From the NCBI GenBank assembly GCA_038242265.1, contig JBBSSH010000003.1:37750-101749 (forward strand): a stretch of DNA of 64,000 nt. Reading direction: 5' to 3'. Source of the stretch: Propionibacteriales bacterium. Its GTDB lineage: Bacteria; Actinomycetota; Actinomycetes; Propionibacteriales; Nocardioidaceae. The notes under the pieces were generated by a model. It searched no databases. It was not told the origin of the DNA and worked only from the letters and a program-made list of their open reading frames with translations. A program made the position numbers and the translations under genes. Shown here one piece after another: positions 53,688 through 56,385 of the stretch (position 1 is the stretch's first letter; each line of letters begins with the position of its first letter).

Positions 53688-54704
53688 TCAGGGCTCCAGC
53701 AGCACCTTGATGGCACGGCGCTCGTCCATGGCGCGATAGGCCTCGGGCGACTCAGCCATCGGCAGGGTGAGATCGAAGACCTTCCCGGGATCGATCGCTC
53801 CGGACAGGACCCGCTCGAGCAGGTCGGGAAGGTAGCGGCGTACGGGCGCCATGCCACCGGCCAGTCCGACGTTCTTCTGGAACATCCGGCGTACCGGGAG
53901 TTCGACTCCATGGGGTACGCCGACGAAGCCGACCATGGAGCCTGGCCGCGCCACGGCGAAGGCGGTCTTCATCGACTGGTCGGTCCCGACACATTCGAGC
54001 ACCGCGTCAGCACCGATGCCGGCAGTGAGTTCGGCGATCCTTGCGCCGCCCTCCTTCCCGCGCTCGGCCACGATGTCCGTGGCGCCGAAGGCCCGGGCGA
54101 TCGCCTGGCGAGGCTCGTGACGAGACATCGCGATGACCCGCTCCGCGCCGAGTTGAGCCGCGGCCAACACCCCGCAGAGCCCCACCGCGCCATCCCCGAT
54201 GACCACCGCAGTACCGCCCTTGCGCACTCCCGCTGCAATGGCAGCGTGCCAGCCGGTGGCCATCACGTCGGACAGGGCCAACAGGGAGGGAATCATCGAA
54301 GCATCCGGCATCCCATCGGTCTTGACGAGGCTGCCGTCGGCCTGGGTCACCCGCGCATACTCGCCCTGACCACTCGTCGTGAAGCCGAGGTGGTCGCAGA
54401 CCGACTGCACGCCGGCAACGCAGTGCGGACACGTGTTGTCGCAGTGACAGAAGGGCACGATCACGAAGTCACCGGGGCTGAAGTCCTTGACGTCCGCACC
54501 GATCTCCTCGATCACACCGACGCATTCGTGGCCGATGGTCGAGCCGGCGTCGATGTCGTTGTGGCCGCGGTAGGGCCACAGATCAGATCCGCACACGCAC
54601 CCGGCCACCACCTTCACGATGGCATCGGTGGTCTCCTCGATCCTCGGATCGGGGACCTCCTCGAAGCGGATGTCTCCGGGCGCATGGATCGTCGTTGCTC
54701 GCAT
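53688..54704 (-). CDS. Zinc-dependent alcohol dehydrogenase family (MDR)
   Basis: CVCGSDLW, GHE, structural Zn Cys cluster, GDGAVG, LECVG. Confidence 0.92.
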   Translation of the reverse strand: MRATTIHAPGDIRFEEVPDPRIEETTDAIVKVVAGCVCGSDLWPYRGHNDIDAGSTIGHECVGVIEEIGADVKDFSPGDFVIVPFCHCDNTCPHCVAGVQSVCDHLGFTTSGQGEYARVTQADGSLVKTDGMPDASMIPSLLALSDVMATGWHAAIAAGVRKGGTAVVIGDGAVGLCGVLAAAQLGAERVIAMSRHEPRQAIARAFGATDIVAERGKEGGARIAELTAGIGADAVLECVGTDQSMKTAFAVARPGSMVGFVGVPHGVELPVRRMFQKNVGLAGGMAPVRRYLPDLLERVLSGAIDPGKVFDLTLPMAESPEAYRAMDERRAIKVLLEP

Positions 54705-54831
54705 GTCCTCATGTTGCCATGCCGGGATGATCGCGACCCCGCGTGGCGGTAAGCGTGACGGCTGCATCGCCGAGGGCATCAAGAAACTGCGGGTGTCCCC
54801 GAACCCGGCGGCCCGACACCTGCACATGGTC

Positions 54832-54851
54832 GTATCTCATATCTGAGATAC
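54832..54851. promoter_or_regulatory. Perfect palindrome GTATCTCA-tatc-TGAGATAC (candidate operator)
   Basis: AT-rich 8+4+8 dyad ending 10 nt before ATG 54862 of the HTH-MurA gene. Confidence 0.7.
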
Positions 54852-54861
54852 CGTGGCCCGC

Positions 54862-56385
54862 ATGGCTGACTACAAGGGCCGGATCGGCAACTTGATCCGT
54901 GACGCACGCAAGCACCGAGGTCTCACGCAGCACCAACTTGCCGAGCTGCTGGGAACCAGTCAGAGCGCCATCAACCGCATCGAGAAGGGGCACCAGAATC
55001 TCTCCCTGGAGATGCTGGCCCGTATCGGTGCTGCTCTCGACTCCGAGATAGTGGCCCTCGGTGCCGGCCCGACCCATCTGCGCGTGGACGGGCCCACCAC
55101 ACTTTCCGGGTCGATCGACGTGAAGACTTCGAAGAACGCCGGGGTCGCTCTCCTGTGTGCGTGCCTGCTCAACAAGGGCCGGACGACCCTGCGCAAGGTG
55201 GCCCGGATCGAGGAGGTCAATCGCCTGCTCGAGGTGCTCCACTCGTTGGGCGTGACCACCCGCTGGATCGGCGACGAGAACGACCTCGAGATCACGCCGC
55301 CGGCGGTGCTCGACCTTGCCAACATCAACGAGGAAGCAGCCCGCCGCACCCGCTCGGTGATCATGTTCCTGGGTCCCCTGCTGCACCACAGCGCCAGTTT
55401 CGACCTGCCCTACGCGGGTGGCTGCAACCTCGGTACCCGGACGATCCAGCCGCTGATGGCAGCGCTGCGCCCCTTCGGCCTCGAGGTCAAGGCGACGGAG
55501 GGCCACTACCACGCCACAGTCGATCGCTCGGTCGCGCCGACTCGACCGATCGTGCTCACCGAGCGCAGCGACACCGGCACCGAAACGGCGCTGATGGCCG
55601 CTGCCCTCCATCCGGGAAGCACCCTCATCCGTAACGCTTCGTCCAACTACATGGTCCAGGACCTCTGCTTCTATCTCCAGAAGCTCGGGGTCCAGATCGA
55701 GGGGGTCGGCAGCACCACGCTGCGGGTCACCGGGTGTGAGTCGATCGACGTCGACGTCGACTACTCGCCTTCCGAGGACCCGATCGAAGCCATGTCTCTC
55801 CTCACTGCGGCTATCGTCACCGCCTCGGAGATCACCGTTCGCCGGGCGCCGATCGAGTTCCTCGAGATCGAGCTCGCGACCCTGGAGGAGATGGGGTTTC
55901 GCTACGACCGTTCGGAGGAGTACGTCGCGGCCAACGGTCACACCAGGTTGGTCGACCTCACCACGTACCCGAGTCAGTTGAAGGCCCCACTCGACAAGAT
56001 TCACCCGATGCCGTTTCCAGGTCTCAACCTCGACAACCTGCCCTTCTTCGCAGCCATCGCCGCGGTGGCCCAGGGACAGACGCTGCTGCACGACTGGGTC
56101 TATGAGAACCGGGCGATCTATCTCACCGAGCTGACCAAACTTGGCGCCCAGGTCAAACTGCTCGACCCGCACCGGGTGATGATCGAGGGACCGACCCATT
56201 TCTCCGGCGCCGAGATCGTCTGTCCGCCCGCACTACGACCTGCAGTCGTGATCCTGCTGTGCATGCTGGCGTCCAAGGGCACCTCGGTGCTGCGCTCGAC
56301 CTACGTCATCCACCGCGGATACGAGGACCTTGCCGAGCGTCTCAACCAACTCGGCGCCAACATCGAGACCTTCCGCGACATCTGA
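54862..56385 (+). CDS. XRE/HTH_3 domain fused to UDP-N-acetylglucosamine 1-carboxyvinyltransferase (MurA-like)
   Basis: IRDARKHRGLTQHQLAELLGTSQSAINRIEKG followed by SKNA, GGCNLGTR, PFPGLN.D, YENR, IHRGYE. Confidence 0.9.
   Translation: MADYKGRIGNLIRDARKHRGLTQHQLAELLGTSQSAINRIEKGHQNLSLEMLARIGAALDSEIVALGAGPTHLRVDGPTTLSGSIDVKTSKNAGVALLCACLLNKGRTTLRKVARIEEVNRLLEVLHSLGVTTRWIGDENDLEITPPAVLDLANINEEAARRTRSVIMFLGPLLHHSASFDLPYAGGCNLGTRTIQPLMAALRPFGLEVKATEGHYHATVDRSVAPTRPIVLTERSDTGTETALMAAALHPGSTLIRNASSNYMVQDLCFYLQKLGVQIEGVGSTTLRVTGCESIDVDVDYSPSEDPIEAMSLLTAAIVTASEITVRRAPIEFLEIELATLEEMGFRYDRSEEYVAANGHTRLVDLTTYPSQLKAPLDKIHPMPFPGLNLDNLPFFAAIAAVAQGQTLLHDWVYENRAIYLTELTKLGAQVKLLDPHRVMIEGPTHFSGAEIVCPPALRPAVVILLCMLASKGTSVLRSTYVIHRGYEDLAERLNQLGANIETFRDI

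Follow-up and report, generated by a model that had tools for sequence, protein, structure and literature searches.

Why does an enzyme of cell-wall synthesis carry a DNA-binding domain, and what would that domain bind? The question is raised by a gene in a stretch of 64,000 nucleotides (nt) of contig JBBSSH010000003.1 from a Nocardioides (family Nocardioidaceae, order Propionibacteriales), referred to here as the window. Its product of 507 amino acids (aa) joins an N-terminal XRE-type helix-turn-helix (HTH) domain to MurA, which catalyzes the committed step of peptidoglycan synthesis, acts as its gate and is the target of fosfomycin. An earlier note on this DNA had proposed that the protein binds an operator of its own and uses the MurA domain as a sensor, coupling precursor status to transcription. 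On the comparisons described below, we consider it likely that the fusion, HTH-MurA, is a bifunctional protein that directly and negatively regulates its own gene and has that gene as its sole target. The self-operator of the earlier interpretation thus stands, while a sensor-only role does not agree with the fusion being the sole MurA, nor a wider regulon with the site being unique.

Upstream of the fusion gene lies a perfect dyad, GTATCTCA (54832-54839) and TGAGATAC (54844-54851) separated by TATC, which ends 10 nt (54852-54861) before the ATG at 54862, as the earlier note had described. It was the only match in the window when up to three mismatches were allowed, and shuffled sequences gave a mean of 0.07 matches, one match being reached in 6 of 100. 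The palindrome occurred in the same register upstream of all 115 orthologues scored, including those of Nocardioides, Marmoricola, Aeromicrobium, Kribbella, Actinopolymorpha, Cutibacterium, Arthrobacter, Brachybacterium, Longispora, and Streptomyces, and it accompanies the fusion in at least four orders. The family consensus over the 115 loci was TATCTCAyATrTGAGwTA, with A3, C7, A8, T13, G14, and T18-A19 invariant in the numbering of the 20-mer, and the consensus ATCTCACATGTGAGAT is a full palindrome without a loop. A position weight matrix (PWM) was made from the first 29 sites and tested on 80 further, independently fetched loci of named species. The median score was 35 bits and the minimum was 14.4 bits, and among 1600 control windows taken at these loci the highest score was 4.3 bits; the presence of the palindrome before orthologues, which had been put forward as a test of the proposal, was therefore borne out.

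The site also appeared to be confined to this gene. A genome-wide PWM scan gave 35.2 bits for the site in the window and 17.3 bits for the runner-up, CAACTCACGTTTGAGATA (G000:C9:25072-25089), which falls in a 903-aa open reading frame (ORF) of the minus strand and probably arose by chance. When 61 genomes of the order were scanned, each had the core pattern roughly once, at the fusion gene, and a small number of additional matches had unrelated centers; the site was not found at the canonical murA, aroA, and murB loci. A wider regulon, for which the earlier note had suggested searching the rest of the genome, was ruled out by the one strong site in the scan and by the roughly one site per genome.

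The arrangement of the palindrome and the start codon is the layout of a leaderless promoter, as far as it can be read from the sequence, and leaves space for neither a leader nor a Shine-Dalgarno sequence. TAnnnT is the actinobacterial type of -10 hexamer, and we called the promoter by this rule together with orthologue comparison. The terminal TA of the palindrome opens a TAnnnT hexamer at all 115 loci, and in 112 of them 6-8 nt lie between the hexamer and the first in-frame start codon (7 nt in the window: TACCGT, GGCCCGC, ATG). The best hexamer located 16-19 nt upstream of the -10 starts with TTG in 43 of the 115 orthologues and agrees with TTGACA at four or more of six positions in 23. 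A scan with the E. coli-type sigma-70 consensus detected no promoter here, that consensus not being informative for a high-GC actinobacterium. The palindrome spans approximately -30 to -11, filling the spacer and overlapping the -10. The claim that an occupied operator would block initiation accordingly holds in that the site is inside the core promoter and overlaps its -10; what would be blocked is transcription initiation at a leaderless promoter and not a ribosome-binding site. As a separate observation, GACAC was present within 50 nt upstream of the operator in 36 of the 115 orthologues, compared with 17 of 460 control windows (loci L014-L130). This CGACAC motif mostly lies 17-24 nt before the palindrome, at approximately -50 to -55 from the start (in the window, at 54815-54819, 13 nt before). 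A further regulator may bind there, or the motif may belong to another promoter.

A leaderless transcript is on record for an orthologue in Streptomyces, namely MurA2 (S. coelicolor SCO5998; S. venezuelae sven5810 / vnz_28735). Streptomyces proteins are 73-75% identical to the fusion over residues 3-507, HTH included, and SCO5998, with 1530 nt or 509 aa, has the length of the Streptomyces fusion proteins. An aconitase gene adjoins the fusion gene in S. prunicolor (locus L122), and the pair SCO5998-SCO5999 (aconitase) is described in PMC12161575. Because length, full-length identity, and the aconitase neighbor agree, we regard SCO5998 as the orthologue. In a published map of S. coelicolor transcription starts, this gene (murA2, 6573186-6574715) is listed as leaderless (Jeong et al. 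2016, Suppl. Data 2; PMC4895711).

We then ask which protein would recognize the palindrome. The recognition helix reads TSQSA[IV]NRIE in 104 of the 115 orthologues. The right half-site changes from TGAG to TGAT in four lineages only, a Nocardioides, a Cutibacterium, an Arthrobacter, and a metagenome-assembled genome (MAG) labelled Acidimicrobiia. All four (loci L077, L118, L032, and L050) carry a changed helix, the substitutions being S35P, I40V, N38H + I40V, and N38A + I40M in the helices TSQPAINRIE, TSQSAVNRVE, TSQSAIHRVE, and TSQSAVARME, and TGAT was found in 0 of the 104 lineages with the canonical helix. Helix and site thus appear to change together, a small but pointed case. Most simply, the palindrome would be the operator of the fused HTH, because in at least four orders a site with one target has stayed next to an HTH encoded in cis, and self-regulation by this HTH seems, by comparison, well supported.

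The mechanism that we propose is as follows. The XRE-type HTH would bind the 18-bp palindrome TATCTCATATCTGAGATA, presumably as a dimer, and HTH-MurA, as it accumulates, would occupy this site at its own promoter and exclude RNA polymerase. The level of HTH-MurA would then be held constant, with its own gene as the only target. The scheme takes the fused HTH, rather than some other protein, to be the binder, and supposes that HTH-MurA dimerizes and that it represses rather than activates.

The architecture of the protein is consistent with these two functions. Whereas the ORF list opens the gene at GTG 54853, comparison with orthologues sets the start at ATG 54862. A Pfam search of the 507-aa product identified HTH_3 (PF01381) at aa 12-63 (E 2.5e-15) and EPSP_synthase (PF00275) at aa 75-494 (E 1.1e-45), the latter covering profile positions 1-417 of 417. 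The subfamily model for MurA, NCBIfam NF006873, scored 323.4 bits, above its cut-off of 297, and the best PDB matches of the MurA domain were MurA enzymes (E 4e-52). An AlphaFold2 (AF2) model, a monomer built from 39 orthologues with a mean predicted local distance difference test (pLDDT) score of 88.8, contains a four-helix HTH at aa 4-58 (helices 4-19, 23-30, 34-41, and 49-58), a linker that is disordered at aa 63-68, and a MurA fold predicted with confidence (pLDDT >90 over most of aa 70-507); it gives no confident indication that the HTH docks on this fold. Among natural proteins of solved structure, C.BclI and C.AhdI come nearest to the HTH, followed by HipB and SinR. The nearest named relatives of the whole protein are Nocardioides proteins, 84-88% identical, which carry the name UDP-N-acetylglucosamine 1-carboxyvinyltransferase or helix-turn-helix domain-containing protein. 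In an alignment of 39 fusion proteins, 25 of the first 60 positions are invariant. The HTH appears always to be retained, every fusion-type match in 121 genomes of the order having an open frame of at least 510 aa, although no search was aimed at HTH-less members of the clade.

Is the MurA domain an enzyme? The source genome, which is 99.96% complete, gave two matches to PF00275, the fusion gene and a 441-aa AroA recognized by the motif LPGSKSLTNRAL near its start, and a tblastn search of the same genome with the MurA domain gave nothing else better than E 0.5. A separate canonical murA, whose presence the earlier note had wished to see checked, was thus looked for with PF00275, TIGR01072, and tblastn, and only aroA and the fusion gene were returned. 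MurB is present. We extended the survey to the 121 genomes of the order, in which fusion-type genes scored approximately 300-320 bits and a gene was counted as canonical when it scored above the TIGR01072 cut-off. A fusion-type gene was found in 121 of 121 genomes, with a canonical MurA alongside it in 51 and without one in 70, some of the latter being single-contig genomes. The fusion-only set comprises all 26 genomes of the source genus, nine from a sister genus, and a second family in its entirety, members of which were matched exactly to Cutibacterium (C. acnes and C. avidum), Aestuariimicrobium, and Friedmanniella; the sampled Cutibacterium genomes have the fusion only. Streptomyces-type, Arthrobacter, and Kribbella genomes have both a canonical MurA and the fusion. 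From this distribution we infer that the fusion is the housekeeping MurA of Nocardioidaceae and Propionibacteriaceae.

Two observations on distribution may be added. In one family of the order (f5), two canonical murA genes stand side by side on opposite strands (approximately 530 and 415-425 bits; G028:C1:879396-882113, with equivalents in G032, G039, G246, G254, G258, G262, G270, and G274), which together with the fusion makes three MurA homologues. Locus L118 (WHTL01000186.1), on the contig labelled as an Acidimicrobiia MAG, encodes a fusion 75% identical to the window protein and has the operator; it is either a rare case outside the class Actinomycetes or a binning error.

Catalytic residues were compared with a sequence of E. 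coli MurA that was checked to be identical to PDB 1uae_A. E. coli K22, N23, R91, C115, R120, D305, R331, R371, and R397 correspond to K91, N92, R164, C188, R193, D391, R417, R459, and R485 of the fusion protein, and all nine are kept in 29 of 29 tabulated fusion proteins, the cysteine at the C115 position being invariant among them. The residue list of the earlier note, with this set retained and E188 and D369 altered, was correct in the verified alignment. Cys115 of E. coli MurA is the target of fosfomycin and the product-release residue. Peptidoglycan requires the MurA product, and we know of no other route to that product. Because the fusion is the sole MurA homologue and peptidoglycan needs the MurA product, it is a strong inference that the fusion, as the housekeeping MurA, is a working and catalytically competent enzyme despite its unusual residues.

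The cysteine position also varies among canonical MurAs. Those of families f3 (apparently Kribbella-type) and f4 of the same order (L006-L012) have Asp at the Cys115 position, as does MurA of Mycobacterium tuberculosis. The canonical copies of family f5 (L003-L005 and L013) and all fusion proteins have Cys. Because the canonical copy of Kribbella-type genomes has Asp, their cysteine-bearing MurA is the fusion.

Several points weigh against a bifunctional, self-repressing enzyme. On the side of catalysis, E188, E190, and R232 are replaced by Asn262, Met264, and Pro307, and S162/V163/G164 by S(G)/D/T in the fusion family, which includes V163D and G164T. D369 is lost as well, its position being taken by Ala457 (HMMER) or Pro456 (MAFFT) inside the motif CPPALRP, which has no acidic residue and is invariant in both protein alignments of the family. 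Thus E188N, E190M, R232P, the D369 loss, V163D, and G164T are fixed in the fusion family, whereas the 11 canonical MurAs of the same order keep E188, E190, R232, D369, V163, and G164. The fusion protein scored 301.9 bits against the murA equivalog TIGR01072, below the cut-off of 392.7, and the predicted activity would rest on the only-homologue argument. On the side of regulation, a palindrome calls for a dimeric binder and MurA enzymes are as a rule monomeric, MerR-type activators also sit between -35 and -10, and the sign of regulation was taken from the usual behavior of XRE proteins. In Cutibacterium sp. L032, the dyad is degenerate (CAACTCAGATCTGATATA) and stands approximately 60 nt upstream of a GTG start. 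The annotated start of this gene, which gives an exact match to WP_303195305.1, is approximately 40 nt downstream of a TATCCT hexamer and behind the Shine-Dalgarno-like GAAAGGA, so that a leader is apparent, unlike in the rest of the family. Finally, autoregulation is not the whole story in Streptomyces, because murA2 there is a BldM-WhiI sporulation target with a footprinted non-palindromic site (PMC4125116), has a SigB-dependent promoter (PMC8346170), and carries a predicted DmdR1 site (PMC12161575).

The best surviving alternative is that the MurA domain serves mainly as a ligand sensor, which through UDP-N-acetylglucosamine (UDP-GlcNAc), phosphoenolpyruvate (PEP), UDP-N-acetylmuramic acid (UDP-MurNAc), or fosfomycin would set the affinity of the HTH for DNA. 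HTH-MurA would in that case act as a regulator responsive to metabolites, or as a trigger enzyme with an open/closed switch. The family-wide change of residues invariant in canonical MurA, described above, speaks for it, and in Streptomyces, Arthrobacter, and Kribbella, where a canonical MurA is also present, the fusion could specialize in this way. MurA closes extensively upon substrate binding, and this movement would be a plausible switch. Nevertheless, a sensor-only role is excluded where the fusion is the sole MurA, that is, in 70 of the 121 genomes including the source genome, and on this ground the domain is not merely a sensor. In addition, the HTH sits on a flexible linker and does not dock confidently onto the MurA domain in the AF2 model, no sequence feature reports ligand dependence, and concentration-dependent autorepression already accounts for the single self-target. 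We therefore regard a main role as sensor as possible but doubtful.

A variant would have the sole MurA of Nocardioidaceae and Propionibacteriaceae, that of C. acnes included, act as a metabolite-switched trigger enzyme, a suggestion that we can offer only tentatively. MurA closure, UDP-MurNAc binding, or a PEP or fosfomycin adduct on Cys188 would alter dimerization or the geometry of the HTH. Since the HTH is tethered by a flexible linker, a ligand switch, if any, would most plausibly act via dimerization of the MurA domains. If this variant were true, the precursor pool would directly tune transcription of the committed step of peptidoglycan synthesis with one protein and one operator.

Apart from such ligand control, direct autorepression by the fused HTH has to be weighed against a separate regulator that binds the palindrome, the fused HTH having another role such as other DNA targets, nucleoid tethering, or protein contacts. 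In Streptomyces other regulators do act at the murA2 promoter, as the binding of BldM-WhiI shows (PMC4125116); the BldM-WhiI motif is described as non-palindromic. However, the site occurs once per genome, only before the HTH-bearing murA, across at least four orders; a single-target regulator kept in every lineage would be less economical than an HTH encoded beside the site; and the lineages with an altered half-site also have an altered recognition helix. We thus judge a separate regulator unlikely. The HspR HAIR and other known actinobacterial boxes were rejected as identities of the site on account of misfits in half-site orientation and sequence, and a global regulator would have more than one site.

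Equally improbable in our view is that the HTH activates its own promoter, by positive feedback or as a switch resembling restriction-modification controllers. The nearest solved relatives of the HTH, C.BclI and C.AhdI, are controller proteins, which activate and then repress their own leaderless promoters, and the weak -35-like element is as usual in activator-dependent promoters. Controller proteins, however, use two adjacent operators and only one is present here; the site extends over the spacer into the first bases of the -10, a position from which a bound protein normally keeps RNA polymerase out; and a spacer of 16-17 nt, which is a normal length, requires no MerR-like untwisting. Last, the possibility that the repeat forms an RNA hairpin within a 5' leader and thereby controls translation or stability, which could be drawn from the 8-bp stem and 4-nt loop predicted to fold just upstream of the start codon (the z-score of the 86-nt region being only -1.9), was rejected as very improbable, because the leaderless geometry and the leaderless S. 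coelicolor transcript imply that the repeat would not be transcribed, the fully palindromic consensus lacks a loop, no Shine-Dalgarno sequence is present to be masked, and there is no covariation (pair 3-16 is T.T in 36 of 115 loci and compensated to A-T in one). Conservation of the bases themselves, uncompensated, is expected for protein recognition of DNA.

The coordinates of the gene, its domains, and its promoter are collected in Table 1. The next downstream ORF is on the opposite strand, and the fusion gene therefore appears to be monocistronic. Its divergent upstream neighbor is a zinc alcohol dehydrogenase gene (53688-54707, minus strand), with which it has an intergenic region of approximately 155 nt in common. 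The listed ORF of this dehydrogenase starts at ATG 54827, beside the palindrome, and the Pfam-matching protein starts from approximately 54707 (MRATTIHAPGD...).

Table 1. Positions of the HTH-MurA gene and its elements within the window
Feature	Coordinates	Strand	Basis
Weak -35-like hexamer TGGTCG (putative; 3/6 to TTGACA), abutting the left edge of the palindrome	54827..54832	+	16 nt upstream of -10
18-bp palindromic candidate operator, core of the 20-bp dyad 54832-54851	54833..54850	.	PWM 35.2 bits; 115/115 orthologues
-10 hexamer TACCGT (TAnnnT type), its first two bases being the last two of the palindrome	54849..54854	+	Register kept in 115/115 orthologues
HTH-MurA fusion coding sequence	54862..56385	+	ORF and domain searches; ATG start, TGA stop
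XRE/Cro-C1-type HTH domain, aa 12-63, recognition helix TSQSAINRIE	54895..55050	+	Pfam HTH_3, E 2.5e-15
Short flexible linker, aa 64-71	55051..55074	+	AF2 pLDDT <50 at residues 63-68, flanking domains confident
Complete MurA (enolpyruvyl transferase) domain, aa 72-504	55075..56373	+	NF006873, PDB matches, AF2 pLDDT mostly >90
Cys188 codon TGC, equivalent of E. coli MurA Cys115	55423..55425	+	Alignments to E. coli MurA

Full-text literature searches returned no description of the HTH, the operator, or the self-regulation of HTH-MurA, as the earlier note had supposed for operator and mechanism. Known controls of MurA act on the protein or via partner proteins, and here the enzyme itself apparently represses the gene that encodes it. 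The fusion is the only MurA in two large families, to which Nocardioides from soil and Cutibacterium acnes from skin belong, and the arrangement would therefore lie at the core of wall synthesis rather than concern a spare copy. The system is also compact, consisting of one protein and one 18-bp site kept across orders. The only MurA of C. acnes keeps the target cysteine and has lost Asp369, a residue said to help the interaction of fosfomycin with MurA (PMC4062475), and P. acnes is reported to be intrinsically resistant to fosfomycin (PMC3838805). A link between the Asp369 loss and this resistance is speculation.

Among described proteins, Streptomyces MurA2 is nearest to the fusion. Its loci have the same palindrome, -10, and start arrangement; it is, however, a second MurA beside the canonical one, while the Nocardioides fusion is the only MurA. 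Over-expression of murA2 was tested during Streptomyces exploration (PMC11005364). The available parts of PMC4125116, PMC8346170, and PMC12161575 make no mention of the HTH, the palindrome, or self-regulation, nor does that of PMC11005364 mention the HTH or self-regulation. Canonical MurA (of E. coli / Enterobacter cloacae, and the actinobacterial enzymes of TIGR01072) has the fold over its full length and the core catalytic residues in common with the fusion. The reaction is presumably the same, given a sole homologue and the presence of MurB, whereas the fusion differs in its N-terminal HTH and linker, its sub-equivalog score, and its altered residues. MurA is controlled by ClpCP/ReoM proteolysis in Firmicutes (PMC7286690), is activated by CwlM in mycobacteria (PMC4946905), and is tied to outer-membrane synthesis in Gram-negative bacteria (PMC9995270). 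A DNA-binding enzyme takes part in none of these controls.

The closest class for an HTH-fused, self-repressing MurA would be formed by the DNA-binding trigger enzymes together with the small autoregulated XRE repressors. PutA, BirA, and NadR combine a metabolic enzyme and a DNA-binding domain in one polypeptide, as HTH-MurA does, and repress their own gene or pathway. In these three, DNA binding is known to respond to substrate or product, a switch that would be hypothetical in HTH-MurA; the DNA-binding fold is ribbon-helix-helix in PutA and a winged HTH in BirA, compared with the XRE-type HTH of the fusion; and none of the three acts on cell-wall synthesis. XRE/Cro-type repressors such as C.AhdI, C.BclI, SinR, and HipB have, as seen here, a palindromic operator with half-sites approximately 10 bp apart over their own, often leaderless, promoter. 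They are stand-alone regulators or antitoxins of 70-110 aa with a dimer interface of their own, whereas in the fusion the HTH is joined to an enzyme of 435 aa, with a single operator and no partner gene.

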